A DNA stretch of 64,000 nt from a virus (IMGVR_UViG_3300025133_009964:4146-68145), one strand, 5' to 3'; shown: positions 1 to 17,483, numbered from the stretch's first letter. The notes: a model not told the origin generated them from the sequence alone. Translations and numbers: made by a program.

Positions 1-2
1 CA

Positions 3-131
3 GATAATGATAGAATTACCAGAATAGAAATTGATATTACAGAACTACGAAGAAATATTGATAAAATCGAGTCAGATAGTCGAGAAATTTTACGAATCGT
101 AGGAAGGTTAGAGGGACTAATTGATAAATGA
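3..131 (+). CDS. 3' end of a coiled-coil hypothetical protein (truncated by the window start)
   Basis: Open frame DNDRITRIEIDITELRRNIDKIESDSREILRIVGRLEGLIDK*; its TGA overlaps the next ATG (ATGA at 128-131). Confidence 0.6.
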   Translation, partial: DNDRITRIEIDITELRRNIDKIESDSREILRIVGRLEGLIDK

Positions 132-2041
132 GAAAAAAGCACATACTGCCTGGCACGTTATTAGCAATATTGCTGGGAATGTGTCTAACAGTATGTAGCG
201 ACTCAAATAATCCCGGGATGACCCTGGCACAAGACGTTAGCGAAGATAGTGAAGAAGAAGATGTTAATAATGGACCAGATATTGTTCCTTGGGTAATTGA
301 AGATCCGGAACCTGATCCGGAATGTATTGAATGTGCAATGTATTTTTGTCCTCCATTAGATGCGATATGGAGAAAAGAAATATGTATGAATATTTGCGAT
401 GACCCTCCAACACTTTATTCTGAATCTGAATGTATACAGTATATGGAATGTGATCCAACGCAGTATCTTATTGATGAAGTCGAATGTGTGACAGAAGACG
501 GGTATCCTGGTACTCAGGAAAAAGTCTGTAATAAAGGATTAATCCAATATACAGATTGTACTACGGCCTGTGAAGAAGAATTATGCAATTATGAAGATGA
601 TGACTGCGACGGTGAAATTGATGAAGGACAGCTGAATGATTGTGGTGAATGTGGTATAATTCCCTCAGAAGAATGTAATGGTATTGATGATAATTGTGAC
701 GGGGATACAGATGAAGATTTAATTCAGCCTTGTGCTACAGCTTGTGGCGCTGGATATGAAATGTGTTATGAGGGCAAATGGATATCTTGTACTGCTCCTC
801 CAAAAAATGATGAAATATGTGACGGTTTAGATAATGATTGTGACGGCCAGATAGATGAAGGATTAGAGTGCGTCTGCACTATACAAGACATTGGTGTTTT
901 ATTCCCTTGTCAAGATGATCCTCTTATTTGTGGGCAAGGCTACAAGACTTGTCAATGTTTAGATCCTGATTGTATAAATCTAGCGATGACAGAATGTTAT
1001 GCTTTGTGTTATTGGGCGCCTTCTGGCGATCCAAATGCTATTTGTGATCCTCTTATTGGTATGGAATTAAGTCAAGAAAAATGTAATAATTTTGATGACA
1101 ATTGTAACCAAGAGATTGATGAAGATCTTTTTGGAGCATGCTATACCGGCCCAGAAGGTACTCTTTTAGTTGGTATATGTATACCCGGAGAAATGACCTG
1201 TGATGCAGGAACTTGGGGTAGCTATGATGAAAGCGAAGTTTTCGTCCCCTACTATTGCAAGGGTGAAATAGTCCCACAAGAAGAAATTTGTAATGGCCTC
1301 GACGATGATTGCGATGGTATAGCAGATTGGGGCGAAGAGATGAAAGAGACAGATGTGCTCTTTATTGTCGACTGGTCTGGTTCGATGGGCGACGAAATGA
1401 GTGCTGTAATGATAGCATTAAATCAGTTTGCACAAAATTTCAGTGATGAAGATGTTATTAAGTGGGCATTTATGAGAGGCCCAGTAGCTGTGTTACCTTC
1501 AACTTATGATGAACGTTTGGAACTAGTACAAGATTTAATTGGATTTTCCGATTACTTAGTTTCATTAGCCGGTATGGATACTAGCATGCAATCGATGAGC
1601 ACTGCCTATGAGATGCTGTTGGATGCGATTTATATATCAGTTCAAAATATAACGGCTACACTACCACAACCTATTTCTAGTTTTGTTTGGCCCGGGACAG
1701 CCAACTTTGGTACAAGTGTGGTCGAATCGGAACCTCCATTACAAAATTTTGATATTAGCTGGCGCTCCGGAGCCGATCGTATAATTATTGTTTTTAGTGA
1801 TGAAGTACCTCAAAGTTATTTAGAGCCAAACTTGAGTATAGAAAATGTAAAAACAGCTGTTTCTGGTACGCCACAGCTTAAATTATTTACATTTTCTAGA
1901 ACAGCCGGCTCATCGCAGTGGGAAGATATAGCTGTTGCCGGCAACGGCGCTTGGTATAAATTAACAAATAATCCCACAGAAATGTACGCTAGCTTGATGG
2001 AGATTCTAGATGAGATATGCAAAGGTGGGACAGATGAATGA
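128..2041 (+). CDS. Secreted Cys/Asp-rich repeat protein (MopE-related putative metal-binding repeats) with a C-terminal VWA domain
   Basis: Hydrophobic signal peptide; five repeats of the E.C(D/N)xxDxxCxGxxD type; VWA MIDAS-like DVLFIVDWSGSM and IIVFSDE. Confidence 0.8.
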   Translation: MRKKHILPGTLLAILLGMCLTVCSDSNNPGMTLAQDVSEDSEEEDVNNGPDIVPWVIEDPEPDPECIECAMYFCPPLDAIWRKEICMNICDDPPTLYSESECIQYMECDPTQYLIDEVECVTEDGYPGTQEKVCNKGLIQYTDCTTACEEELCNYEDDDCDGEIDEGQLNDCGECGIIPSEECNGIDDNCDGDTDEDLIQPCATACGAGYEMCYEGKWISCTAPPKNDEICDGLDNDCDGQIDEGLECVCTIQDIGVLFPCQDDPLICGQGYKTCQCLDPDCINLAMTECYALCYWAPSGDPNAICDPLIGMELSQEKCNNFDDNCNQEIDEDLFGACYTGPEGTLLVGICIPGEMTCDAGTWGSYDESEVFVPYYCKGEIVPQEEICNGLDDDCDGIADWGEEMKETDVLFIVDWSGSMGDEMSAVMIALNQFAQNFSDEDVIKWAFMRGPVAVLPSTYDERLELVQDLIGFSDYLVSLAGMDTSMQSMSTAYEMLLDAIYISVQNITATLPQPISSFVWPGTANFGTSVVESEPPLQNFDISWRSGADRIIIVFSDEVPQSYLEPNLSIENVKTAVSGTPQLKLFTFSRTAGSSQWEDIAVAGNGAWYKLTNNPTEMYASLMEILDEICKGGTDE

Positions 2042-2646
2042 TAAAAAAACTTGCCATTTTTTTAATCGTGATATTGTGCAGTATCACCTGCAACAGCCAT
2101 AACTCAACTATTTTTCTCAACAATGATTATAGAGTAGTTTATAAAAGAGCGCAGTGCAAACCAGCTGATAATTTTCCTCAAATGATTATAATTCCTTATT
2201 TTAGTGAAGCAACTCAAATAGTACCAAATTGTAAAACCTATCCAGTACATAAAACTACATTTGCTTTATTTGTTTTTTATCATCAATGGTTAGAATATTT
2301 TGAAGATAAAAATATGGCAGTCAGAGGAATGCTTGAAAAAGTAATGATTCAATGGGATACCGAAAAGCGCACTAGTGGAAAAGGATATGATATACACGGC
2401 GATCGTTATGAAGATCGCAATATCATAGGCTTAGTAGAAACAAATAACATTATATGGGTTTGGCAAGGATACAATCATAGAATTTCTGAAAGCGCTTTAA
2501 TTCATGAATTGGTTCATTTGGCTCTGCGCGCCAAAAATGGTACCGCAGACCCCGACCACGAAGGTCCTAAATATCGTGGCTGGACTAAAATTCACACACA
2601 TATGATAGTAGAAACAAAACAAATGTTACGCGCGTTTGAATTATAA
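2038..2646 (+). CDS. Secreted or lipoprotein zincin-like metallopeptidase
   Basis: N-terminal signal with Cys; ALIHELVH motif followed by DPDH. Confidence 0.6.
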   Translation: MIKKLAIFLIVILCSITCNSHNSTIFLNNDYRVVYKRAQCKPADNFPQMIIIPYFSEATQIVPNCKTYPVHKTTFALFVFYHQWLEYFEDKNMAVRGMLEKVMIQWDTEKRTSGKGYDIHGDRYEDRNIIGLVETNNIIWVWQGYNHRISESALIHELVHLALRAKNGTADPDHEGPKYRGWTKIHTHMIVETKQMLRAFEL

Positions 2647-2659
2647 ACTATTTATATTT

Positions 2660-3082
2660 ATGAATATTTTGTTTGAGCGATGGCGCGCCTATTTATTAAC
2701 AGAGAATAATATGGATACAGATCAGGTATCAAAAGTCGTTCTTCATGATAAGGAAAACAAAATTTTATTATTGAAAAGTGATATGGGAGACTTTAAAGGA
2801 GAATGGGATTTACCGGGTGGACATATCCATAGCGATGAGACCGACGTAGAGGGTCTTTTAAGAGAAGTTAAGGAAGAGACAGGGCTAGATATAAATAATC
2901 CACAAAAGGTCTTTAAAGAGCAGAGAATCACCTATTTTAAAGCTTCTATGCCGTCGGCCAAGATTACATTAAGCCACGAACATTCTGGCTATGATTTTTT
3001 TGAACTTGGTGAAACTCAAAAAGATAATTTCGAAACTTCGAAAAAATTTAAAAAAGCAATTAAAAAAGCAATGAAAATATAG
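2660..3082 (+). CDS. Nudix hydrolase with the shared N-terminal leader (MNILFERWRAYLLTE)
   Basis: Nudix box GGHIHSDETDVEGLLREVKEETGL; start moved to ATG 2660, where the leader begins. Confidence 0.85.
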   Translation: MNILFERWRAYLLTENNMDTDQVSKVVLHDKENKILLLKSDMGDFKGEWDLPGGHIHSDETDVEGLLREVKEETGLDINNPQKVFKEQRITYFKASMPSAKITLSHEHSGYDFFELGETQKDNFETSKKFKKAIKKAMKI

Positions 3083-3091
3083 AGGAAAAAA

Positions 3092-3589
3092 ATGAAACTA
3101 TTACTTGAAAACTGGCGAAAGTATTTGACCGAGGCTATAGGGGCTGATGAAAATCCAGATCTATCTCAAGATCCTGAAGCTTTTCAAACTGCTAAAAAAC
3201 CTATTCCTCTTGATTTTAGATATGCTGAAGAGGGCGAAATAATATACACTCGGGAAAGTCCAGCACCTAAAGGTGTTACTGTCCCTCCCGGCGGCGCAGC
3301 CGTTATGACAGGTACTAGGGGCGAAGAATGGCCTATTCCTCTAGAGCACCCCAAGGATCCTGCGAAAAGTTTTGGAAATACGTATGATATTTTGGAACCC
3401 GGGAAGGCATCAAAGAAAAACATACCAGTTTTTGCTAAAGAAATGCAACAGCCATTTCAAGTAAAAGTTTCTTGGTCTCCCGATTTGTTACAAGGCGAAG
3501 CAGGAGATATCTTGGTGCAATATGGCCCGGGAGATTATGGTGTTGTTGGAGCAGAAATATTTGGAGAAACATATGAAACTATTACTTGA
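3092..3589 (+). CDS. PGDYG-domain protein with the shared leader
   Basis: MKLLLENWRKYLTE leader; GTRGEEWPI and QYGPGDYGVV motifs; GAGG RBS. Confidence 0.8.
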   Translation: MKLLLENWRKYLTEAIGADENPDLSQDPEAFQTAKKPIPLDFRYAEEGEIIYTRESPAPKGVTVPPGGAAVMTGTRGEEWPIPLEHPKDPAKSFGNTYDILEPGKASKKNIPVFAKEMQQPFQVKVSWSPDLLQGEAGDILVQYGPGDYGVVGAEIFGETYETIT

Positions 3590-4217
3590 AAACTGGCGAC
3601 AGTATTTGGAAGAACAAAATACGCCAGTTGCCCAAAATTATTCGTCTGTTAATATTGATAATGATGCTGTACAGCTTTTATTATCTAAAGCAAAAGAACA
3701 TGTCGGTGAAATTCCGGAAGGTTTTAAAGATAAAGAAGGTAAATGGCCGCACCATATGACAATCAATATGGGCCCTTTGTTACAAGGCTGGGAAGAAGGA
3801 AGTGAGCTAGTTTTGGAAATTGATGGATGGGGTATTATTAATGATGAATCCGGACAAGCCATGGCCTTCCGTGTAAATAAGACAAAATTGCCGGCTCCAA
3901 CTAAAAATGCAGCTCCTCATATTACAACATTGGTTGGTCCTGGCGGAAAACCATTTCATTCTAATAAGATTGTAAATTGGGAGCCCATTGAGTCTTTTGG
4001 CGTCAAAGGTACAGTAGTGGCCGCTGCACAGCAAAAGAAAAAAGAAAAACCTAAAAAACAACAGAAGCCACAAGGTCAAGCTAATCCTGTTGAATTTGCT
4101 AAAAGTTTAGCGGCCCGCGGGCTACCGGCAGATAAGATTAAAAATATTATAATGAACAAATTTAATAAACCAGAAGCAGCTGCTTTGGGAATTATGAGAG
4201 GAGCAGGGATACAATGA
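3573..4217 (+). CDS. 2H phosphoesterase (cyclic phosphodiesterase-like) with the shared leader
   Basis: Leader MKLLLENWRQYLEE from ATG 3573; two HxT motifs (HHMTINMG, PHITT), as in tRNA-ligase CPDase-type 2H enzymes. Confidence 0.7.
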   Translation: MKLLLENWRQYLEEQNTPVAQNYSSVNIDNDAVQLLLSKAKEHVGEIPEGFKDKEGKWPHHMTINMGPLLQGWEEGSELVLEIDGWGIINDESGQAMAFRVNKTKLPAPTKNAAPHITTLVGPGGKPFHSNKIVNWEPIESFGVKGTVVAAAQQKKKEKPKKQQKPQGQANPVEFAKSLAARGLPADKIKNIIMNKFNKPEAAALGIMRGAGIQ

Positions 4218-4906
4218 AACTATTACTTGAAAATTGGAGAAAATATTTAACCGAAGGGGAACAAAATAAAAAAATCTTTGTTTTAGTCGGCCCGCCGTCA
4301 ATTGGCAAATCAACTTGGATAAAAAATACGTTTGAAGAAACACCCTACATTATTAATAGAGATGATATTGCAGAAAGTGTTGCTTCTGAATATGGATGGA
4401 CATACGATGATATGTTTTCTTCTCCACCGCCAGGCTCCACAGTGGGTGAAAAAGATTCAAAATATGGCAAAGTAATTGAATCGCCTTCTTGGATGACTTG
4501 GCAGCCTCTTTCTTTTGATAAGGTCATAGAAGCCAACAATAAAGTACAGGATCTTTTTTCACAAAAAGTCGCCGGCGCAGTACCAAGTGGCTTGGATATT
4601 GTTATCGATATGACAAATATGAATTCTGGTGCGCGAGCTAGAGCTTTGGAATCTGTTGAAGGTCGAGAAGAAGAATATGAAAAGATAGCTGTTGATTTTA
4701 AATTTGAAGGTGCTGAAGAATTAATTAAAAAGGTTGCTCATAATAGAACAGAAACTGCAAAGAGAATGGGTAAAAGTAAAACAATACCGCCGGCCGCATT
4801 TGATAGAATGTTTAAAGCTTATGAAAAACCTTCGCCGGCGGAAGGTTTTGATCAAATAGTGGATGTTGATAATCGAGATTTATTAAAAGACTTGGCAAAT
4901 TCCTAG
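4214..4906 (+). CDS. P-loop kinase (AAA_33/polynucleotide kinase-like) with the shared leader
   Basis: Leader; Walker A GPPSIGKST; INRDD; IVIDMTN; C-terminal PSPAEGFD. Confidence 0.8.
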   Translation: MKLLLENWRKYLTEGEQNKKIFVLVGPPSIGKSTWIKNTFEETPYIINRDDIAESVASEYGWTYDDMFSSPPPGSTVGEKDSKYGKVIESPSWMTWQPLSFDKVIEANNKVQDLFSQKVAGAVPSGLDIVIDMTNMNSGARARALESVEGREEEYEKIAVDFKFEGAEELIKKVAHNRTETAKRMGKSKTIPPAAFDRMFKAYEKPSPAEGFDQIVDVDNRDLLKDLANS

Positions 4907-4915
4907 AGGAAACAA

Positions 4916-6196
4916 ATGATACATATACAAGAAAATTGGCGAACTTTTTTAAATGAAGCAGAATTAAAACATTCAGAAGCCGCGGCCAATGCGATATATA
5001 AAATTGCTGTTAATGCAAAAAATAGTGATAAAGAACACAAAGAAATTATAAAAATTCCATCTAGCGAAATTTATTATCTCGATAATAATCTGATCAAAAC
5101 TGGTGCTATACTGGTATATTATGGAAACATAAAAAATGAAGATTTTAAAAAAATAGCAAAACCTATTATAAATTATTGGGATGCAGAGACAAATGCTTTT
5201 AAATCTGACTGGGTAGATAATATATTAAAAAATTATTCCTTTCCTCTTTTAGTAGAAATAGGTAAATTTGATTTTCTAGGAAGAGCAGCTACGGCTATGA
5301 TTACTGGCAAACCAGATCATTTAATTGTACAGCTAAATCCATGGTCTCCAATGTTAAAGAATGATGATCAATTAAAAGACACTATTAGACATGAACTACA
5401 GCATATAACTCAAAAAGTAAATGGCTTGTCATTGAGTTATGGAAAACAAATAGTTAAAAATAAAGGAGATATTACGAATATTGAACCTTTAGATTTAAAA
5501 GATCAAAAATCATTTGGAGAATTTGGCGTTGGTAAAGAAAAAACTGGTCTAAGACAAGGTGCAACAAGCGATAAAGATGCACAGGCCGCCGCCCCTGAAC
5601 CCGGCGAACCGGTCGATCGATCGAGCGAGGATTGGACCTGGAGAGTTTGGAGAGAGAAAAAATATCTTGGAGATGATTTTGAATATGAAACTTGGTTGTC
5701 TGATATATTATCTGATTATGTTAGGTGGATTTTTAATAATGAAAACTTAAAAGATCCTTTAAAGAAAAATCATTTAGTTTTTGCCGGCTTCAAAGAAGCA
5801 TATTCAAATATTTTGATGGAAACCAAAGATGTATCTGAGGGAGTTCTTGATTTTCTCAAGAGAAAGAGAAAAAAGAAATCAAAAGAAAAATCGTCGAAAG
5901 AACCAGCTGGAATGTCAGACAGAAAAAAAATTATTGGATTTGCAAAAGAAATGAATATGAATCCAAGAAAATATATAAATTTTTATAAGAAAAAGCTTTC
6001 GTATAATCAACTAGCTGTAAAATATACTAAAATGCTAATTAGCAATGATGCAATTATAAAACAATTTGATGAAAAAGCAGCGCCAGAAGGAATAGAATAT
6101 TCAAAAGCAATTAAGATACTTTTAGAATTAAGACCAAAAGAATTCCCAGCTGATTTTGTAAAAAATTTAGAAATTCGTTTACGTAAAATAAAATAA
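4916..6196 (+). CDS. Zincin-like metalloprotease with a variant leader (MIHIQENWRTFLNE)
   Basis: IRHELQH motif and downstream FEYE; internal LME..SEGVLD acidic linker. Confidence 0.65.
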   Translation: MIHIQENWRTFLNEAELKHSEAAANAIYKIAVNAKNSDKEHKEIIKIPSSEIYYLDNNLIKTGAILVYYGNIKNEDFKKIAKPIINYWDAETNAFKSDWVDNILKNYSFPLLVEIGKFDFLGRAATAMITGKPDHLIVQLNPWSPMLKNDDQLKDTIRHELQHITQKVNGLSLSYGKQIVKNKGDITNIEPLDLKDQKSFGEFGVGKEKTGLRQGATSDKDAQAAAPEPGEPVDRSSEDWTWRVWREKKYLGDDFEYETWLSDILSDYVRWIFNNENLKDPLKKNHLVFAGFKEAYSNILMETKDVSEGVLDFLKRKRKKKSKEKSSKEPAGMSDRKKIIGFAKEMNMNPRKYINFYKKKLSYNQLAVKYTKMLISNDAIIKQFDEKAAPEGIEYSKAIKILLELRPKEFPADFVKNLEIRLRKIK

Positions 6197-6207
6197 GGAA
6201 ATAAAGA

Positions 6208-6768
6208 ATGGGATCGAAATTTGGAGACTCTGGTGATGACACCTTAATAGATGGTGATGATGATATTATTCTCGATGCTGCCGGTAACAATATATATTTT
6301 GATGCCGCCGGAACTAGAGTTATGAGTATAATGAATATTAGCAGCGACGTTTATCTCCAGCCAACTGTCTCAAACAAAGACCTTTGTTTAGCGACTCAGG
6401 GAGATAACACCGTTCTTACAGTCGATTCTAGTGATAGCGCCCTTAAGATTAATAGAAATTTTGGCTTGACAGTCAACACCCTGATGAATTCTTCTGCTGC
6501 GCTAAGTGCGACTGCGCCATTTAACAAAATGGTTAATACAACAGGCAGCGATATTACTGGCACGTTACCAGATCCCACATTTGAAGGCCAGGTACAGATA
6601 ATTCTTGGTGTACAAACTAGTTCCGGCAACAATATAGTTTCATATAAGAATGCAGCCGATGGTACCACATCAAAAACCTTAACAAACGGCACCGCGATAA
6701 CATTAATTTCATTTGATGCCACCGGTGGTGGCGCATATCGGTGGTGTCCAGTAGGAGACGTCAGCTAA
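6208..6768 (+). CDS. Beta-rich virion/fibre-like hypothetical protein (no leader)
   Basis: G/S/T/D-rich; DIILDAAGNNIYF-type beta repeats; AAGGA RBS. Confidence 0.55.
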   Translation: MGSKFGDSGDDTLIDGDDDIILDAAGNNIYFDAAGTRVMSIMNISSDVYLQPTVSNKDLCLATQGDNTVLTVDSSDSALKINRNFGLTVNTLMNSSAALSATAPFNKMVNTTGSDITGTLPDPTFEGQVQIILGVQTSSGNNIVSYKNAADGTTSKTLTNGTAITLISFDATGGGAYRWCPVGDVS

Positions 6769-7976
6769 TGAAGCTCATAATCGAAAATTGGCGAAAATTC
6801 CTAAATGAAGAGATCACAGATGATATTCTTGATACCATAGCAGATCTTGAAAAGCGTAAAAAAGCAGCACAAGCCGGCTCAAAAACCTGGCAACCAACTG
6901 GTGACGAGACAGACTGGAAAAAATTCAAGCAATGGCGTGATTTTACCCGGGCACACGAAGCCGGCGTGGCTAGCAGCGGCACCGGGCCGTACGACGACGC
7001 GCAGCCGCCAGAACAGCCAGAAGATTTTGAAAAAGCTGTTAAACAAAAAAGTTCACAAAAATATGAAGATATTTTACAATATAATTGTGAAATATTTAGA
7101 AAAGATCTGCGCCGGCTCTTTCATCATTCAATATCTTGTGATGATTTGAAAAATGCTACGCAAGGGCTGAACCCGGGTAAAGGCTCCCCAAGTCAAATAT
7201 TTAGTAATTCTAGATATGTAAAAATAATCGGAACTGGAGGCTTCGGGGTTGCAGCATTGTTTGAAAACGACCATATAGTTAAAATATTTCACGGAGGTGT
7301 CGGCGCCCGGCGAGAAGATCCATTAAAGGGTGAATTAGAAGGTTATCAAGCCCTTTTAGATTCGCAACTTGCAGGAGTTGCTAAATCATATGACCTGGCG
7401 GTATATGAATTTGGTACCATCCCCACCCACCCGGGCTTTGTTGGATACGCAGAAATAGGCAAAGTAATTCCATTTGGAAATTGGTCTAGCGATAATTTTG
7501 ATATGGACGTCCAAGAGGATATTGAAATTTTTTTATGGTCTGATTTAGCCGTCGGGTTGGAAGCTGCCTGGCGCGCAGATAAGGTTAAAACATTTGATCA
7601 GGTTGATGGTGGTGCAAAAGAATATATAGATTATATAATGAACGGGGATCCAAAAAAAGAAAAATATCCTACAGCTGGAGGGCCCTGGGAAGGAATAAAA
7701 GCCGGCGGCTTAAATAACGTTAGCACAAGTGTACATAATTATGGCTGGAGATCGAATCACAAAGATGACCCGGGCTATTATGAAATGCCACCAATTCCGC
7801 CGGCACTTCATCGCGGCAAGGGTAAGAAATTTCTTCATTCTTTATTGACTGCAGTCTATAGAGCTTCGAAACTAAATGGAGGCATATATCTTTATGGGCC
7901 CCAAACAAGTGATATACATGAAGGAAACTTTGGAATTTCTTATCAAACAGGCGAAGTTATAATCTTCGATAGGTAA
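6768..7976 (+). CDS. Protein kinase-like (ePK/APH fold) protein with the shared leader
   Basis: Leader MKLIIENWRKFLNE; Gly loop IGTGGFGVA; VKIF; catalytic loop DIHEGN; Mg-binding IFD at the C-terminus. Confidence 0.7.
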   Translation: MKLIIENWRKFLNEEITDDILDTIADLEKRKKAAQAGSKTWQPTGDETDWKKFKQWRDFTRAHEAGVASSGTGPYDDAQPPEQPEDFEKAVKQKSSQKYEDILQYNCEIFRKDLRRLFHHSISCDDLKNATQGLNPGKGSPSQIFSNSRYVKIIGTGGFGVAALFENDHIVKIFHGGVGARREDPLKGELEGYQALLDSQLAGVAKSYDLAVYEFGTIPTHPGFVGYAEIGKVIPFGNWSSDNFDMDVQEDIEIFLWSDLAVGLEAAWRADKVKTFDQVDGGAKEYIDYIMNGDPKKEKYPTAGGPWEGIKAGGLNNVSTSVHNYGWRSNHKDDPGYYEMPPIPPALHRGKGKKFLHSLLTAVYRASKLNGGIYLYGPQTSDIHEGNFGISYQTGEVIIFDR

Positions 7977-7984
7977 TTATTAAT

Positions 7985-8836
7985 ATGAAACTTATAATGG
8001 AAAATTGGCGCGGCTATCAAGAAAAAGTACTCTTACAAGAAGGTGTAGTTGATTACATAAAATCTGGCTTTGAAAAACTTGTTAACATGCCTAATAAATT
8101 TGATCAGCTCGTACAAGCAATCAAGCAAGAATTTGAAAATACTTATATTGAAAAATTGAATATTTTAGCCCAATCTGATCAAATGCAAGAAATTGGAAAA
8201 GATGTTGCTGATAAGATTATGCAAAATTCTGATATGGAAACGCTGAAAGAAGAGTGGACATCAGATTCCTCTACAAGGCAATTCTCGTTAGAAGACTTAG
8301 CACAAATGGGTGTTGGAAAAGAAACTATTGAGTTAGTTGCTCATACTGTCACAGATACCGGCGCAGAAGCTCTTATAAAATCTGCAGAAAATATCGTAGG
8401 CAAGGCATTGCCGCCTAATATTAAAGATTGGCTAGTAAGGTTTGCTTCAAAATTTGTAGGTAAATTTGTTTTTGGCTTTATTGATAATTTTATAATGGTT
8501 TTAGCAGGAAGCTTCATAGATACACAATTTGCGGGACTAAGTGCCTCACTAGTTAGTGCTGCAAATGCAGGACTTATGTCAGCCGGCTTTGGGAATACTG
8601 TCTCTGATGCTATAGGGGAATTGGCCGGCCAGAAAATCGAAGATGTACTAAAAGATATGGGTTTGGATCCTAAAGATGTAACAGACGAACAAGTTGCTGC
8701 TGGGCCAAAATGGATGAGATTTTTAGACAAGAATGCCAGTGTTATTGGAATTATTTTAGGGTGCTTTGCTGGACTATTTCCATTATTCTTTTTTACGCTG
8801 GGGGAAGAGAAAGAAAAAAATGAAACTATTATTTGA
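7985..8836 (+). CDS. TMEM65-like membrane protein with the shared leader
   Basis: Leader MKLIMENWRGYQE; FGFIDNFIMVLAGSFID, AGFGNTVSDAIG and IGIILGCFAGLFPL resemble the TMEM65 signature. Confidence 0.7.
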   Translation: MKLIMENWRGYQEKVLLQEGVVDYIKSGFEKLVNMPNKFDQLVQAIKQEFENTYIEKLNILAQSDQMQEIGKDVADKIMQNSDMETLKEEWTSDSSTRQFSLEDLAQMGVGKETIELVAHTVTDTGAEALIKSAENIVGKALPPNIKDWLVRFASKFVGKFVFGFIDNFIMVLAGSFIDTQFAGLSASLVSAANAGLMSAGFGNTVSDAIGELAGQKIEDVLKDMGLDPKDVTDEQVAAGPKWMRFLDKNASVIGIILGCFAGLFPLFFFTLGEEKEKNETII

Positions 8837-9449
8837 AAATTGGCGAAAATATCTGATGGAAGGTTTGGAAGAGCTTAAGCATATTTCTGCAAAACCGTGG
8901 GCCGCGGCCGAAGCAAAAAACGAATGGGGTGAAGAAATAAAAACTTCTTTAGATAACGGCGATGAATATATTGGTCAACGTTGGCCTGATTTAAATAAAC
9001 AAGTTATAGAAGAAAAATATCCGTTTATGCTTTCTGCAGAAGATTTTGCAGAAGTTTTATCAAAAGCACCAATAAAAAATCTTTCGCCATCCCAAATGAA
9101 AGATATTCATAATCACGCCCAAGTATATAATATTATTGAAATGTATGAGAAGGATAAAAGCCCTGAAGAAGTTGAAAAGGAAATGTTTGAATTCTTTAAA
9201 GGACATACTACAGATCCGGATGCTGCTGGAAAAACGTATCCCAAGGAATCAAGCTATAAAAGGTGGGTGGATGAATTTGCTAAATCGGATGTGTCAGATA
9301 AACCACCAATAGTTTTAGAATTACCAGATGGAAAATTAGCACACATTGGCGGCCAAACACGACAAACTGGCGCTTTAACAAATAAAAAAATTATTCCATA
9401 TGCCGTTATTTCGCCAGTGCAAGGAGAGAAAGATGAAACTCCTACTTGA
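8820..9449 (+). CDS. ParB/Srx-like domain protein with the shared leader
   Basis: Leader MKLLFENWRKYLME from ATG 8820; PPIVLELPDGKLAHIGGQTR resembles the ParB/Srx PIV...GxxR motif. Confidence 0.55.
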   Translation: MKLLFENWRKYLMEGLEELKHISAKPWAAAEAKNEWGEEIKTSLDNGDEYIGQRWPDLNKQVIEEKYPFMLSAEDFAEVLSKAPIKNLSPSQMKDIHNHAQVYNIIEMYEKDKSPEEVEKEMFEFFKGHTTDPDAAGKTYPKESSYKRWVDEFAKSDVSDKPPIVLELPDGKLAHIGGQTRQTGALTNKKIIPYAVISPVQGEKDETPT

Positions 9450-10026
9450 AAATTGGCGACAGTATCTCAATGAAATTGAATCTATAACTCCGATATTAGA
9501 CAAAGATGACATAGAAAAGACAATAACTGGCCCAGAATTTAGTTTTAACTCTTTAAAGACCTCATATCATCGATGGGGATACCAGCGCCCAAAAATTGAT
9601 TATTATTTTGATGAGCAAAGTAAGGATTGGAAGTATATGGCCTATATTTTAAATAATCCGGATAAACCAGACCTAGAGTCCGAAGAAAATGAAACTCTTG
9701 AAAACTTTTTGGGCCGTGTAAGAGATTTTCCTCGTCAATTAAAATTCAAATTTGGAGAATCTCTTTATTATGGTACCTCAACCACTTTTCAACAAGAAAT
9801 TACCGAAAACGGTATAAAAGCACCTAGTAAATGGGGAAGTTACGGCTTGGCAGAAGAAAATGCGATGAAAATCGTTGAAAAACACGGCGGGGAGCCAATG
9901 GTTATCCAAATACCCTGTTCAGAGTTCAAAAATGATTTTTTACTTGACGAAGCTAGTGAAAATGGTATAATTTATACTGAGGATTTTTTTATTAATTTAG
10001 AAAAACAAGAAAAAACGTTAGTATGA
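9433..10026 (+). CDS. Leader-bearing protein with a C-terminal ADP-ribosyltransferase-fold (KptA/Tpt1-like, degenerate) domain
   Basis: Leader MKLLLENWRQYLNE from ATG 9433; LYYGTS....ITENGIKAP...GGEPMVIQI resembles LYHGT...I...GL...PVVL.I. Confidence 0.5.
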   Translation: MKLLLENWRQYLNEIESITPILDKDDIEKTITGPEFSFNSLKTSYHRWGYQRPKIDYYFDEQSKDWKYMAYILNNPDKPDLESEENETLENFLGRVRDFPRQLKFKFGESLYYGTSTTFQQEITENGIKAPSKWGSYGLAEENAMKIVEKHGGEPMVIQIPCSEFKNDFLLDEASENGIIYTEDFFINLEKQEKTLV

Positions 10027-10033
10027 GTAAAAA

Positions 10034-10609
10034 ATGGTTAAAAATGAAGAAAAAACACTTCCATATGTGATTTATTGTGATATGGACGGCGTTTTGGTTG
10101 ATTTATTCGAGAATGGAGTGTATTTAGAGGCAAAAGATCCAAAAATACGCAAAAACCTTCAAAAGATCATCAAAATGAACTGGAAATGGTCAAAAGACCA
10201 CGAAGATCCCGATATTCAAGAGACTTTGGTCTGGATTCGGCAATTATTGGGCGATAATCGTCAATTTTGGGCCAATTTAAGGCCTCTTCCGGGTATTTTA
10301 CCCTTCTGGAAGCATTTGAATAGTGTCGGAACAGTAAAAATCCTTTCTCACCCTTGGGATGAGGCCTCTGCAGAGGGCAAAAGAGACTGGATTAAGAGAT
10401 ATTTGCTTCCAAATCTTAAAAATGAGGATATTTTGCTTCCATTAGACGGAAAAAAGGAAATTTGGGCTCAAAATGGTGGAAAACCTTGTGTTTTAATTGA
10501 TGATTTTACCACATATACGGAGAAATGGGAAGAAAATGGAGGTATTGCTATCTTGCATACATCAAATCAAACAACAATTCAAGCTTTAAAGAAGCTTGAA
10601 ACTACTTAA
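10034..10609 (+). CDS. HAD-family 5'(3')-deoxyribonucleotidase (NT5C-like)
   Basis: DMDGVLVD motif I; ILS; GKRDW; LIDD motif IV; W...GGIAILH. Confidence 0.85.
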   Translation: MVKNEEKTLPYVIYCDMDGVLVDLFENGVYLEAKDPKIRKNLQKIIKMNWKWSKDHEDPDIQETLVWIRQLLGDNRQFWANLRPLPGILPFWKHLNSVGTVKILSHPWDEASAEGKRDWIKRYLLPNLKNEDILLPLDGKKEIWAQNGGKPCVLIDDFTTYTEKWEENGGIAILHTSNQTTIQALKKLETT

Positions 10610-10621
10610 TAAAGGAATAAA

Positions 10622-10816
10622 ATGAATAAAATGAACGTAAATATTAATGATGCCGAAGATATGAAATGTCCAGAATGTGAAAATGAGTATTTTAAGCCTG
10701 TTTTCAGGGTTAAGAGGATAAGTGCCTTCATTTCGCCCTCCGGAGAAGAAACAATGATACCAGTTCAGCTTTTAGCGTGCACAAAATGTGACCATGTAGT
10801 GAGTGATATAGAATAA
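10622..10816 (+). CDS. Small zinc-ribbon protein
   Basis: CPEC ... CTKC; AAGGA RBS. Confidence 0.75.
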   Translation: MNKMNVNINDAEDMKCPECENEYFKPVFRVKRISAFISPSGEETMIPVQLLACTKCDHVVSDIE

Positions 10817-11812
10817 ATGCAACTTCAATACAAGAAATTATGGGAAGAATTCCAAAAAGATGCTCAAAAAATAGATTTGAGTAGTTTAAAGATTAAAAAT
10901 ACCTTAAATTCTAGTTTTTGGAGTGAAAATAACGACTTTGATCTTTACATTAGGGAAAGATTACTAGAAATAGCACAAGAATTCTTTGAAAATTTGGGGC
11001 TAGAGGGTGTTGAAATTGAAGATATAACACTAACTGGCTCATTAGCTAGCTATAATTGGTCTGAATATTCTGATATAGATCTTCATATTGTTATAGATTT
11101 TAAAAAAGTTGATGAAAATTTTGATTTAGTGCGTGAATATTTCAACGGAAAGACATTTATTTGGAATAATAAACATAAAATTGAGATTTTAGGCTATGAA
11201 GTAGAGATTTATGTACAAGATCCGAGCGAAACACACCATTCATTGGGAATTTTTTCCCTTTTAAGCAACGAATGGGTATCAGAGCCAACGAAAACAGACA
11301 AAAAGATCGATTTTGAAGGTACAAAAAAGAAAGCTATACAAGCTATAGACTGTATTGAGCGTGTTTTTGATCTTTTTGAGGATAAAAAGTATAAAAAAAC
11401 ACTAGAATGTGGTAAAAATATTAAAGAAAAGATTAAAAATATGCGAAAAACTGGTCTAGAAACTACCGGAGTTTTTTCAATTGAGAATTTAACGTTCAAA
11501 ATACTACGAAGAATGGATTACTTAGGGGATTTGAACGAAATAATTGATAAATCTTACGACAGAATACACTCTTTGGCAAAGAAATTCACAAAAAAGTTAA
11601 AAATATATGTTTCAGAGCCAGAAAAGAACGAAAAACCAGGTTTTTTTGCTTTAAATGAGCTTGAAAAATATCAAAAAAAGCTAAAAAGACGCCATAAAAG
11701 GCAGAAAAAACGCCTAATTGGACTGGGAAAACAGAAAAATAAGCCCCCATATAGCCATAAACCGGCCTATAAGAGGGCAAAATCAGCCCCTTCGGGGGCT
11801 GGCGGAGCTTAA
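10817..11812 (+). CDS. Pol-beta-superfamily nucleotidyltransferase with a basic tail
   Basis: TGSLASYNWSEYSDIDLHI (GS...DxD); EVEIYVQD. Confidence 0.8.
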   Translation: MQLQYKKLWEEFQKDAQKIDLSSLKIKNTLNSSFWSENNDFDLYIRERLLEIAQEFFENLGLEGVEIEDITLTGSLASYNWSEYSDIDLHIVIDFKKVDENFDLVREYFNGKTFIWNNKHKIEILGYEVEIYVQDPSETHHSLGIFSLLSNEWVSEPTKTDKKIDFEGTKKKAIQAIDCIERVFDLFEDKKYKKTLECGKNIKEKIKNMRKTGLETTGVFSIENLTFKILRRMDYLGDLNEIIDKSYDRIHSLAKKFTKKLKIYVSEPEKNEKPGFFALNELEKYQKKLKRRHKRQKKRLIGLGKQKNKPPYSHKPAYKRAKSAPSGAGGA

Positions 11813-11905
11813 AAAAGTACTCAAAAATATAGGTATTTATCTTTCTTAGATAAACAAAACTAATTATTTTTGAGTATTTTTTTAAAAAAGGGAATAAGAC
11901 AGAAA

Positions 11906-12961
11906 ATGACCTCTGCAAAATATAAAAATCGTATTAAAAATATCATTCTTAGTGAAACAAAGTCTTATTTCAAGAAATTAAAAGAAGAAGAAGGTGAAGA
12001 AGAGGAAGTATCTCCTGCAGAACCAGAAGCCGAACCAGACGAAGATGCCATGGCTGCGCAAGCGGAAAAAGAAACAGAAAAGAAAGCAGCTGAAACTGGC
12101 GAACAAGGGGGTGAAGGACAGCCTGCTGAAAAAGCAGGAAAATCTGGTTCTGGAGATTTTATGGCTAAACTTCTTGGTATGCATGTACCTACAACTGGTG
12201 GTGGATATTATGGAAGTGAAGAATACTTAAAAAAGTATTATGGTTCGACAGGTTCCGGACCAAAGTCAGCAGATATCGGTGGATCTGCAGGAGATACTCG
12301 TTCTCAAGGATCAACTTCTGGAGGATCGGGTGGTTCATCGACCGGCGGATCCGCTGGCGGTGATCGCTCTCAAAAATCAACTTCTAAGGGAAAAGACGCC
12401 GGCGATCGCGCACTCTCGGACACGCCGAAAACACCTAGAGGCGCTGTACTTAATCAGTTCGAGTGGGTCTCCATTGATAAGAGATCCAAGAGAACTAAAA
12501 AAGATTTGTTTTGGAATAGCGCGTCAGATGTACATTTAGATGATATTATGTTTGTAACACCAGAGGAGAGATACAAAATTTTTGAAGAGCTTATGGGTCG
12601 GTCTCATCCACAAGCAGATTCTGAACAAAAATTAAATCGTTTTATGACACTCCCTCGACTTTTTCATGACGCACCGGCAGAAGTTATTGGGGCAGTACTT
12701 CTTAGTTTCAATAGATATGGTACACAAGATGTTGCGGACGCCTTTAGGAAATATCATACAAACTATGAGCCTGGAAAAACCGATGACGAGTGGAAAAGCA
12801 AAGAAATGGCACGAAAGAAGGTATTATATCAAAAATACAAACAGATGGTATATAAAAGATATCTTGAAATTAAGGCCGAGCGAGATCGCGCCAGAGAAGA
12901 TCCGAGTGATCCCTTCGCATCAAACCCCTATGCGAAGGAAGATTTTTTTATAGAGGATTAG
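11906..12961 (+). CDS. Acidic, Gly/Ser-rich hypothetical protein (possible internal head protein)
   Basis: N-terminal RIKNIILSE...LKEEE; poly-E tract; duplicated GGSAG(D/G)xRSQxSTS. Confidence 0.65.
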   Translation: MTSAKYKNRIKNIILSETKSYFKKLKEEEGEEEEVSPAEPEAEPDEDAMAAQAEKETEKKAAETGEQGGEGQPAEKAGKSGSGDFMAKLLGMHVPTTGGGYYGSEEYLKKYYGSTGSGPKSADIGGSAGDTRSQGSTSGGSGGSSTGGSAGGDRSQKSTSKGKDAGDRALSDTPKTPRGAVLNQFEWVSIDKRSKRTKKDLFWNSASDVHLDDIMFVTPEERYKIFEELMGRSHPQADSEQKLNRFMTLPRLFHDAPAEVIGAVLLSFNRYGTQDVADAFRKYHTNYEPGKTDDEWKSKEMARKKVLYQKYKQMVYKRYLEIKAERDRAREDPSDPFASNPYAKEDFFIED

Positions 12962-12985
12962 GGGATTTTTAAGGAAATACACAAA

Positions 12986-13672
12986 TTGGAATATTCAATA
13001 CAAAATAATTCGAATAAAGATATGGAAAGCGTTACAAATATGGCTGGTAGTTTGTTACCATATGCCCAAAAGCGTTTGGGGTATAATCGTCCCGTAAGCA
13101 TTGTTTTTGAATCTGATTTTGAAAATTCTGAAAACATATTGGGAAAAACAGCTTATTATAATCCTTCTAGTGATCAAATTACTATTTTTGTTGACCAAAG
13201 ACATCCAAAAGATATTTTGAGATCTATTTCCCACGAATTAGTACATCATACACAAAATTGTAGAGGTGAATTTGATGGGAATAAGAGTGTTGGTGAAGGA
13301 TACGCTCAAGTCGACGAACATTTGAGAGAAATGGAAAGAGAAGCCTATTTAGAGGGACAATTACTTCTCAGAGATTGGGAAGACGGAATAAAAAAGGAGA
13401 ATTCTAGGATGAATGAACAAAAAGTTAGGGAGTTGGCTCGTAGTATTTTAAAGAAGCTTAATGAAAAGTTTGATAATAAGCTGGTTTTAAAACAAGAAGA
13501 ACAACAAATCGAAGAAGAAGATATTTCTGAAACAGAGGCTGTTGAAGAAGAGGTTATTGAGGAAGAAGAAGTCGTTGAGGAAGATTCTCAAAATGAAAAC
13601 CTCAATGAAAGCTTTACCTCAAAGAAAGAACAAAGACTTTTTAAAGCCCTTATGGGCAAGTGGTGCAAATAA
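12986..13672 (+). CDS. Zincin metallopeptidase domain fused to an acidic head/scaffold-like tail
   Basis: LGKTAYY, SHELVHHTQ, MEREAY; E-rich tail with LNE motifs; TTG start uncertain. Confidence 0.75.
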   Translation: MEYSIQNNSNKDMESVTNMAGSLLPYAQKRLGYNRPVSIVFESDFENSENILGKTAYYNPSSDQITIFVDQRHPKDILRSISHELVHHTQNCRGEFDGNKSVGEGYAQVDEHLREMEREAYLEGQLLLRDWEDGIKKENSRMNEQKVRELARSILKKLNEKFDNKLVLKQEEQQIEEEDISETEAVEEEVIEEEEVVEEDSQNENLNESFTSKKEQRLFKALMGKWCK

Positions 13673-13921
13673 ATGGAAGATGATGGTAGAGGTATCGATA
13701 AAGATTTTGTAATTCGCCGTCATGAAATTGTTAATTCTGAATGGAAGGCTGATGATACATCAATGCGAACTTATTTAGGAGCAAATTGTCGCCGATGTTG
13801 GGGACTTGCTTCTGCTTCAGAATTAGATACTCCCAGAGGAGTTCAACAAGTACCTATCATAAAATCTGTGCCTGGTGTTGTAAATTTGCATATGTCAGGA
13901 TACGCAGTTGTTAGAAGCTAA
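13673..13921 (+). CDS. Hypothetical protein
   Basis: ATG immediately after the previous TAA; 82-aa open frame. Confidence 0.5.
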   Translation: MEDDGRGIDKDFVIRRHEIVNSEWKADDTSMRTYLGANCRRCWGLASASELDTPRGVQQVPIIKSVPGVVNLHMSGYAVVRS

Positions 13922-13939
13922 AAAAAAGGAGAAAATATT

Positions 13940-14119
13940 ATGGCTAGCCCAAGATTAAGAAGAGCAAGAAAATTAGCAGCGCTTCGCGCAAGAAGAACAA
14001 CCGAAACAGTTGTAGTAACGCCGCCGGTAGTTGAAGAAACAGTTGTAGTAACGCCGCCGGTAGTTGAAGAAACACCTAAAGCTAAAGTAAAGAAAAAAAT
14101 GAGTAAAGCTAAAAAATAA
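13940..14119 (+). CDS. Small basic protein with a tandem repeat (59 aa; missed by the ORF track)
   Basis: AGGAGA RBS at 13927; MASPRLRRARKLAALRARRTT(ETVVVTPPVVE)x2ETPKAKVKKKMSKAKK*. Confidence 0.75.
   Translation: MASPRLRRARKLAALRARRTTETVVVTPPVVEETVVVTPPVVEETPKAKVKKKMSKAKK
14003..14074 (+). repeat. Perfect 33-bp tandem repeat (2 copies plus a partial copy)
   Basis: gaaacagttgtagtaacgccgccggtagttgaa at 14003 and 14036. Confidence 0.95.
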
Positions 14120-17121: not shown

Positions 17122-17483
17122 TGTGGGAGCCGAAACGAAGAACATATTCGAAGCCAAATCAAGAATATTATTCAGTATCTAATAAATTAAAATCAGAGGG
17201 TAAAATTACTAATGATTTTGAAGTTATGTTGTCTTCTCTGACACTAGAAGATATTATAGCCCTTCGTTTGGAGCTAGCCGCAAAAGCGGTTAATGGAAAG
17301 CTTTATGGTTTAAAAATTTGGGAGTCAATTCCCAAGATTGTCAAAGAATCGGTTTTAAAATACACATATTCAGCCGCTAGAACTAAAAATGAAGCAGCTG
17401 CTTTTCTTGGAATAAACAAGAATGATTTTCGAAAATTACTTAAGCAGTTCGATATTACTAATTTTTTTCAAAAAAATACTTGA
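17121..17483 (+). CDS. HTH (Fis-like) DNA-binding protein
   Basis: C-terminal RTKNEAAAFLGINKNDFRKLLKQF. Confidence 0.6.
   Translation: MWEPKRRTYSKPNQEYYSVSNKLKSEGKITNDFEVMLSSLTLEDIIALRLELAAKAVNGKLYGLKIWESIPKIVKESVLKYTYSAARTKNEAAAFLGINKNDFRKLLKQFDITNFFQKNT

Follow-up and report, generated by a model that had tools for sequence, protein, structure and literature searches.

Introduction

The 1994 report of Repoila et al. (EMBO J 13:4181) is reported to describe internal-protein (IP) loci of T-even phages with a capsid targeting sequence. We describe here a comparable hyperplastic cassette array in a 64,000-nucleotide stretch of viral DNA (IMGVR_UViG_3300025133_009964, bases 4146–68145 of a 68-kb IMG/VR virus record judged 34% complete; hereafter the window), in which nine tandem genes on the plus strand, at 2660–10026, begin with the same 14-residue leader. 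In the passages cited, the T-even IP genes have only a leader in common and form polymorphic loci (PMC3012670, PMC12373910, PMC2839356). The internal proteins of T4, and Alt, carry N-terminal capsid targeting sequences of 10–20 residues, which bring these proteins, or foreign ones, into the scaffolding core before they are cut away (PMC9026906, PMC5694885, PMC10229621, as excerpted; Mullaney & Black 1996, via PMC9026906), and the T4 prohead protease gp21 is stated there to cleave after L/I-x-E (PMC9026906, PMC5694885).

The window array resembles the T-even IP loci in being a polymorphic locus of unrelated small genes that share a short N-terminal leader alone, and in that gene number, order and identity vary among related phages. 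A 14-residue leader shared by nine genes of differing or no Pfam family is a trait of the capsid-targeting type. The T-even leader steers its protein into the head and is cut off by gp21 after L/I-x-E; by analogy the present leader may do the same. The T-even proteins are injected and counter host defences, a feature of those proteins. The arrays differ in length (nine genes here) and in cargo, which here is mostly larger and includes several enzymes. The leader is also another sequence, without a match in 50,697 deposited phage records, T-even phages included, when a 42-nt leader was used in blastn and a 21-residue leader in tblastn, short queries having limited sensitivity. With no BLAST match to T-even phages, we regard the leader system as an analogue of the T-even capsid targeting sequences and not as a member of that family.

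A second relevant system is the PeSL (promoter-early stem-loop) elements, short repeats in hyperplastic regions where homologous recombination swaps single non-essential genes without an integrase, as the cited sections put it (Arbiol et al. 2010, PMC2839356; Comeau et al. 2014, PMC4122927). Such elements flank T-even IP genes and are thought to mediate their shuffling, and the PeSL authors themselves draw the comparison with integrons (both in the section cited of PMC2839356). PeSLs and the present repeat share repeat-mediated excision, insertion and replacement of single genes without an integrase. PeSLs are, however, intergenic regulatory cassettes, whereas the element here is the first 27 nt of a coding sequence without promoter or terminator, the genes abut or overlap and crossovers lie in the coding leader; an intergenic promoter and stem-loop terminator around each open reading frame (ORF), the defining PeSL trait, was not found in the array. 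Integrons (Mazel 2006, as cited in PMC2839356) share with it a tandem same-strand array of mostly promoterless, unrelated cassettes, a repeated junction and variable content; here there is no IntI tyrosine recombinase, no attC inverted repeat and no attI or Pc, and the junction is translated. In the giant phages phiKZ and SPN3US many ejection proteins of the head interior likewise have N-terminal propeptides, cut by a gp21-related protease after a short x-x-E motif, and paralogues among them share identical N-terminal residues, but most of those propeptides exceed 100 residues, and the passages cited do not present them as a common cassette junction (PMC5694885). The present system thus appears, by analogy, to work like T-even IP loci and PeSL shuffling, and it is like an integron in outline only. 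The novelty lies in the leader family and its spread among uncultured marine myoviruses, in an enzyme-rich and mostly unknown cargo, and in the use of a translated leader as crossover site. Our literature searches found no published description of the leader.

A translated repeat heads nine tandem genes

The repeat was first noticed as DNA. Its 27-mer, ATGAAACTATTACTTGAAAACTGGCGA, occurs without mismatch at 3092–3118 and 3573–3599, with two mismatches at each of 4214–4240 and 8820–8846, and with three at 9433–9459, always on the plus strand, so the two identical and three near-identical copies listed by a first-pass annotation of the window were recovered by pattern matching. No match appeared in 100 dinucleotide-preserving shuffles of the window. 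The copies at 3092 and 3573 agree at 35 of their first 36 bases. A six-frame motif scan widened the family to nine genes with the peptide consensus M-K-L-[LI]-[LMF]-E-N-W-R-x-[YF]-[LI]-x-E, adding to the five already noted those at 2660 (degenerate, MNILFERWRAYLLTE), 4916 (MIHIQENWRTFLNE), 6768 (MKLIIENWRKFLNE) and 7985 (MKLIMENWRGYQEK).

The genes are tightly packed, with intergenic gaps of 0–11 nt and otherwise overlaps. As the annotation had it, three genes end inside the next leader as ETIT* (3589), ETII* (8836) and ETPT* (9449) through 17-nt overlaps, and the ORF table also gives the ATGA junction at 4214 and the TAATG junction at 6768. The stop of the 17-nt overlap is a TGA formed by leader codons 5 and 6 (CTT or TTT followed by GAA). 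The leader, together with a purine-rich ribosome-site stretch, is the sole repeat family within the array, and the junction repeat is a direct repeat. Sites resembling promoters number 41 (shuffles, 35.6 ± 5.8) and sites resembling terminators 8 (shuffles, 8.7), with no excess of either kind in the array. Neither junction hairpins nor imperfect inverted repeats of the attC type were found; the interval 2500–10200 holds two short palindromes, both intragenic. One 2,607-nt contig of sequencing run X3 spans window positions 3533–6139 with one difference; an assembly from a different run thus repeats the order of genes around the leaders at 3573, 4214 and 4916.

In relatives, cassettes are deleted, inserted and exchanged at the leader DNA

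The annotation had proposed that the repeat is a handle for adding, deleting or exchanging cassettes, and had suggested aligning related loci. We searched IMG/VR with a degenerate pattern for the first nine leader codons, which gave at least 166 matches at at least 120 loci; all leader tallies below (176, 177, 157 and 160 leaders, 119 proteins, 121 sequences) are counts among the matches listed. Nucleotide alignments of these leader-bearing relatives bear the proposal out, with gain, loss and exchange crossovers inside the 27-nt core. Contigs L056 and L077 align in two blocks, 1–1928/108–2036 (96.5%) and 2596–7199/1985–6621 (91.5%), which overlap by 52 nt in a single leader of L077; in L056 two additional cassettes lie between two leaders. 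L028 and L046 are without three of the L056 cassettes, and there the block overlap, 31 nt, is the leader. L056 and L069 have exactly one cassette in common (L056:1878–2274; 97% identity) between unlike flanks, with its ends at one leader's ATG and at base 26 of the leader that follows. In the printed alignments upstream homology extends to about base 27 of the leader and downstream homology begins at the leader ATG.

Counts over the 121 sequences agree with the individual cases. Leader windows make up 1.3% of the DNA and hold 37 of 253 internal homology end points, an 11-fold excess; windows at other ORF starts show only a 2-fold excess. Of 59 leader starts, 28 have such an end point; of 295 other gene starts, 47 do (odds ratio 4.8).

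Gene order and content are not fixed among relatives. G006, G001, L108 and L070 all differ from the window, and array content differs among G006, G001, G007 and G009. G006, the closest relative (flanking genes 68–71%), keeps homologues only of the gene at 3573, of the C-terminal half of that at 9433, of those at 10034 and 10622 and of the NUDIX gene, in another order. The PGDYG cassette has different neighbours on both sides in each of four neighbourhoods (window, G001, L108 and L070). Its C-terminal end differs too, alternating between ...TYK* (ATGA overlap), ...TYKA* and ...TYET[IP]T*, the last with its stop in the leader.

The shared start might instead be the remnant of duplication in plain tandem paralogues, with no role in recombination. 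The genes are indeed tandem, on the same strand and tightly packed. The cargo speaks against this: its Pfam families differ, the 48 nt just behind the leader (nt 43–90) are 29% identical with no pair above 60%, and one cassette is common to unlike contexts in L056 and L069. We consider duplication scarcely credible.

No tyrosine recombinase (PF00589) was detected in the window's record or in five of five complete relatives, the control genomes all being positive, and a RecA-family recombinase is encoded in all five. The array was thus rightly called integrase-free. The label integron-like holds only as an analogy: the tandem cassette array stands, and an integrase, attC and attI are absent. 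The leader DNA is a short homology at which cassettes are deleted, inserted and exchanged, a conclusion shown in relatives that we hold with high confidence. Ordinary recombination of the RecA/UvsX type would use the 26–27-nt leader core for these events, both within one genome and between co-infecting relatives, and the same exchanges would homogenize synonymous sites of the leader. The alignments offer an unusually clean example from nature in which homologous recombination at a translated repeat of 27 nt moves cassettes, with no site-specific recombinase involved, and they extend the ideas of the T-even IP locus and of PeSL to another lineage and to a coding junction.

Three points temper the case as it applies to the window. 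No relative is close enough for a nucleotide-level breakpoint in the window's own array: searches for loci with 10817–11812 or 6768–7976 gave none, and the gene at 3573 was found in no metagenome contig and, among viral contigs, only in G006 and G009. The crossovers were seen in sister lineages that share flanking genes at 45–60% protein identity, and the window array differs from its relatives at the gene level only. Finally, both the end-point statistics and the codon shuffles described below use related contigs chosen for holding leaders, and the end-point p-value is indicative only.

Leader–leader joints in contigs of runs X3–X6 (window 1–14000) were considered as deletion variants and rejected. 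All those listed have sides of 20–34 nt, and leaders of other organisms account for the depth peaks at leader bins; hence, the joints do not support deletion variants.

Short ORFs of 10–11 codons, MKLLLENWRG[LI]*, stand without cargo between other genes at L075:3537–3572, L059:2167, L062:5885 and L102:3866 (minus strand). These solo leaders resemble scars left when a cassette was lost or when an insertion took place behind a leader.

Synonymous sites of the leader are shared within contigs

Conservation of synonymous sites exceeds what the protein calls for, as the annotation had suggested checking. At 483 of 672 comparable positions, leaders on one contig have the same codon, where the contig's codon usage would predict 276.6. 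Synonymous codon identity within contigs is 0.719, compared with 0.552 ± 0.029 when leaders are shuffled among contigs, and none of 2,000 shuffles reaches 0.719. Rare codons are fixed in leaders, namely CTC, CTA and CTT (the last at 73 of 75 Leu at codon 5), and the rare CGA is present in 93 of 176 listed leaders against 14% of Arg codons elsewhere. A single 26-mer allele accounts for 45 of 177 listed leaders, on 31 of 121 sequences, including the window copy at 9433; five of the nine leaders of G001 are this commonest 26-mer. The codon sharing is the signature of repeated exchange or conversion between leaders.

Selection on the start region of the mRNA could account for part of this nucleotide conservation. 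In its strongest form, the conserved nucleotides would be an RNA operator at the translation start of co-regulated mRNAs, bound by a phage translational regulator in the manner of T4 RegA, and the peptide would be its by-product. Conservation beyond codon usage, the fixed rare codons and the span across the start codon all suit an operator. All six Leu codons, however, occur at codon 3, and positions 11–14 keep Y/F, L/I and E with free codon choice. Conservation is also higher within than between genomes, which fits conversion better than a common operator. No such regulator was found, no search aimed at one having been made. We judge the operator very improbable and retain exchange between leaders as the source of the shared codons.

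Stop codons in the leader follow from the peptide

The further proposal, that the leader is a built-in terminator closing whichever gene precedes it, was not borne out as a designed property. Among 157 non-redundant listed leaders, the upstream gene stops in an ATGA overlap at 64, in a 17-nt overlap at 13, in a 1-nt overlap at 13 and after a short gap at 49, and 18 have no upstream ORF. Off-frame stops in the opening 27 nt occur in 65 of 120 leaders (54%) and in 467 of 778 other gene starts (60%), and are therefore no commoner in leaders. Met-Lys always gives ATGA, and Leu or Phe (NNT) followed by Glu gives TGA at nt 15–17; hence, the stops follow from the peptide and are very likely a by-product of it. 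An upstream gene entering the leader out of frame would be closed within 17 nt, and the junction would tolerate small insertions and deletions, though no better than an AT-rich gene start in general does. Some selection on the stop is conceivable, CTT being nearly fixed at codon 5, and translational coupling at these junctions is plausible.

These counts bear on the original interpretation as a whole, in which the repeat is selected as a DNA device, an integrase-free and integron-like junction that closes the upstream gene and couples the next, with the peptide incidental. It draws on the upstream stop lying within the leader at 77 of the 157 junctions (the ATGA and 17-nt classes), on CTT at codon 5 preserving TGA in 73 of 75 cases, on the higher frequency of ATGA overlaps at leaders (49 of 120) than at other genes (117 of 778), and on crossovers falling in the leader. 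Set against these, off-frame stops are not enriched, Met (ATG) occupies codon 5 in 67 of 176 listed leaders and abolishes the TGA, and only 13 of the 85 leaders that have the TGA make use of it. Moreover, residues 10–14 are conserved through many synonymous codons, which places the peptide under selection, and the defining parts of an integron are absent. Apart from the four short solo leaders, no leader was seen that had lost the peptide while keeping the DNA. An exclusively DNA-level device is accordingly improbable, and we return to the peptide.

A putative capsid-targeting role for the leader peptide

The first-pass annotation missed that the leader is above all a conserved peptide, and with it the probable role. 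The search pattern left leader positions 10–14 unconstrained, and yet [LI]-x-E lies at 12–14 in 120 of 176 listed leaders and Y or F at 11 in 154 of 176, each written with many synonymous codons. As the amino acids at 10–14 are kept through many synonymous codons, the peptide itself is under selection. In the window, [LI]-x-E is at 12–14 in seven of nine leaders, shifted by one residue in that of 2660 and absent from that of 7985. In PGDYG orthologues a six-residue insertion stands directly after E14. By analogy with T4, we lean slightly towards the leader being a capsid-targeting propeptide whose end is the motif of the T4 prohead protease, [LI]-x-E. In that role it would attach the cargo to the prohead core, a head maturation protease of the gp21 type (Peptidase_S77) would cut it off after [LI]-x-E, and the cargo, carried inside the head, would pass into the host along with the DNA, in the way of T4 internal proteins and Alt.

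What the relatives encode fits such a route. Peptidase_S77 was found in 11 of 25 leader-bearing records, among them all seven with a completeness of 77% or more. A capsid protein of the Gp23 type is encoded in five of five complete relatives, and its N-terminal region holds several L-x-E motifs. In G001 a 182-residue protein starting MKLLLEHWNRYLQE is encoded between the portal and the head maturation protease (L132:15380–15988), an interval that on the T4 map holds the prohead core genes. The ORF 3' of the G001 protease contains ...TWRTFLNE....

Structure prediction was also applied. The predicted complex of the G001 head maturation protease with residues 1–45 of the G001 PGDYG leader protein scored 0.00 and lends no support, without weighing against the pairing. 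For the window PGDYG protein the mean predicted local distance difference test value (pLDDT) was 49.8, with the leader modelled as a helix at residues 2–15 with pLDDT below 50, too weak for use.

Several observations count against capsid targeting. It leans on an analogy and on a motif of three residues, of a kind that arises often by chance; 56 of 176 listed leaders, including that of window gene 7985, are without [LI]-x-E at 12–14. The window's 68-kb record, 34% complete, has no head genes and no S77 match, and a leader-like protein stands next to the protease in only one of the five complete relatives examined. The cargoes include a TMEM65-like membrane protein and proteins of up to 719 residues, unlike the small basic internal proteins of T4. 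No cultured phage with the leader was found among the deposited records with the short BLAST queries.

The main rival is a different docking role, in which the leader is a localization tag for a target outside the capsid (a cytoplasmic hub, tubulin-like filaments, a membrane site or a shared chaperone) and [LI]-x-E is incidental; exchange at the DNA level would be unchanged. Retention of the same peptide on unrelated cargo is as expected for such a tag, and a cargo rich in enzymes and including a membrane protein is unusual by the standard of T4 internal proteins. A gene for a tubulin/FtsZ-like protein is found upstream of the window and, in G001, directly after a leader gene. The prediction of the leader as a single helix, at low confidence, would also suit a docking tag. 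This alternative leaves unexplained the fixed hydrophobic-x-acidic spacing (the same 120 of 176 leaders), which matches the motif of a T4-type protease, and the leader-like start inside the head module of G001, and no hub protein was identified. We consider it unlikely. Capsid targeting remains the role to which we lean, and the combined account of a peptide tag, a DNA junction and by-product stops is, in our judgement, fairly probable.

A bolder form of the capsid-targeting account is offered tentatively, as a possibility. The leader would be dual-coded, with selection maintaining it as peptide and as DNA simultaneously: the peptide would be the ticket into the capsid, and the near-universal 26-nt allele would be a translated recombination site, a coding counterpart of attC, through which distantly related co-infecting marine myoviruses trade ready-to-package effectors. 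If so, the leader would mark out a pan-viral pool of exchanged, injected proteins, more than 100 in number and most of them unknown, and the first nine codons would suffice to find any of its members.

Should the leader be a capsid-targeting tag, searching for nine codons would list the probable injected proteins of an abundant group of uncultured marine phages. At least 119 distinct proteins at at least 120 loci, about 100 of them without a family, would then form a catalogue of candidate effectors of host takeover and anti-defence, and the leader would be a packaging tag for engineering phages of marine hosts.

Phage group and spread of the leader

The window encodes T4-type baseplate wedge proteins and PhoH, and the sequencing runs that contain the stretch are marine metagenomes; runs X1–X3 contain 0.8–0.97 of the words of window 2600–10100. 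It is a fragment of an uncultured marine T4-like myovirus with a genome of about 180–200 kb. Its nearest deposited phages, Microcystis phage Mel-JY01 and Flavobacterium phage immuto, are distant (wedge protein about 30%). For the terminase of relative G001, the nearest cultured phage is Flavobacterium phage vB_FspM_immuto, at 46%.

Listed leader matches are nearly all at ORF starts, many of them in arrays of three to six. Many of the listed loci share the window's downstream genes (homologues of 13022–13672, 14131–17121 and 17121–17483), so the array occupies a conserved place within one phage group. A scan of a whole prokaryote genome collection gave 52 matches, of which 11 are of leader type, on short, low-GC contigs of metagenome-assembled genomes (MAGs) that point to no host. 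Most of the 52 are an internal ...IENWRWxGVPFYxRxGKR... motif of a cellular enzyme, probably glucose-6-phosphate dehydrogenase. The leader is nearly confined to viral DNA. Leader-type genes lie on L157 (CP070664.1, a 2.8-Mb WOR-3 MAG 'chromosome') and L168 (NHHP01000006.1, a contig of 116 kb in a Pelagibacter bin); in both cases the DNA may be binned phage sequence or a prophage.

Many small ORFs of these phages begin with another common leader at the N terminus, MK[IV]TK.QL..IIKEE...[LM].E (L132:5208, 5554 and 9225; L070:4408, 4974, 5500 and 7546; L127, reverse complement, 3482 and 4239), and one more such ORF lies at genome bases 2–457, upstream of the window. This second leader resembles the start of a small conserved ORF that follows the head maturation protease in five of five relatives, and may be a second targeting class.

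The tubulin/FtsZ-like gene upstream of the window (genome bases 677–1717) has GGGGG...GGGGGTGS motifs and a weak PhuZ PHROG match (E 0.005). Its G001 counterpart, L132:3915–5042, is the one directly 3' of a leader gene.

Array genes, their cargo and neighbouring features

The nine window cargoes are mutually unrelated: one each is NUDIX, PGDYG, AAA_33 kinase-like and TMEM65-like, and five are without a family. All array genes are on the plus strand. The motif ACTATTTA at 2647–2654 lies 6 nt before the first leader gene, as a possible promoter heading the array. Cassette 1 (2660–3082, ATG at 2660) encodes a NUDIX hydrolase (PF00293, 5.2e-14) behind the degenerate leader MNILFERWRAYLLTE, and cassette 2 (3092–3589) a PGDYG-domain protein (PF14083, 7.5e-13) with leader MKLLLENWRKYLTE and its TGA stop within the next leader. 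The 214-residue product of cassette 3 (3573–4217, leader MKLLLENWRQYLEE, ending in an ATGA overlap) has only a weak, sub-cut-off tRNA_lig_CPD match; its homologues are in G006 (66–71%) and G009 (60–66%). Cassette 4 (4214–4906), again with leader MKLLLENWRKYLTE, encodes a P-loop kinase-like protein (AAA_33, PF13671, 1.9e-10; polynucleotide kinase PHROG, 3.8e-12).

Cassette 5 (4916–6196) has the diverged leader MIHIQENWRTFLNE and a 426-residue product of no known family. It is followed inside the array by a leaderless gene (6208–6768; 186 residues, no family), whose TAA overlaps by 1 nt the ATG of cassette 6 (6768–7976; leader MKLIIENWRKFLNE; 402 residues, no known family). A homologue of cassette 6, at 47%, lies in a different context in G007/L013. 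Cassette 7 (7985–8836) encodes the TMEM65-like protein (PF10507, 2e-20) behind MKLIMENWRGYQEK, the leader without [LI]-x-E at 12–14, and cassette 8 (8820–9449) a 209-residue protein of no known family behind MKLLFENWRKYLME; both stop within the next leader. Cassette 9 (9433–10026; 197 residues) has leader MKLLLENWRQYLNE, the first 26 nt of which are the commonest listed IMG/VR allele. At the downstream edge of the array lies a leaderless NT5C/HAD 5'-nucleotidase gene (10034–10609, plus strand; PF06941, 4.7e-08). Its homologues in L075 (5018), L034 and L050 have a leader, and the same family thus occurs with and without one.

Only the C-terminal 95 residues of the 9433–10026 protein match, at 74% identity, a 260-residue leader protein of G006 (L126, reverse complement, 7071–7853). 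The N-terminal halves behind the leader differ between the two, which indicates that exchange also occurs inside cargo genes.

Cargo across the listed loci is similarly diverse. Sixteen Pfam families (E ≤ 1e-4) are represented among 119 distinct listed leader proteins, each in at most two proteins, and about 100 of the 119 match no family. The families include GNAT, HAD_SAK_1, PGDYG, M23 peptidase, Zeta-toxin-like and other P-loop kinases, RNase T and RNase H-like exonucleases, NUDIX and 2H/CPD phosphoesterase.

The heptamer CTATTTA lies within 40 nt upstream of 27 of 160 non-redundant listed leader ATGs, against 0.9 expected, at loci L001, L024, L028, L046, L049, L050, L054, L056, L057, L067, L069, L077 and others and, in the window, at 2647–2654; it may be a promoter of this phage group. 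It is distinct from the T4 late-promoter consensus, TATAAATA, which has nine matches in the window against 9.6 expected, no excess and uninformative.

Just upstream of the array, 128–2041 encodes a 637-residue cysteine-rich protein with a lipoprotein-like start and metal-binding repeats of the MopE type, kept in six relatives at 39–71% identity. Farther downstream, two very long ORFs adjoin the baseplate genes, at 40885–52245 (3,786 residues) and at 56534–64000 (more than 2,489 residues), the latter running off the window.

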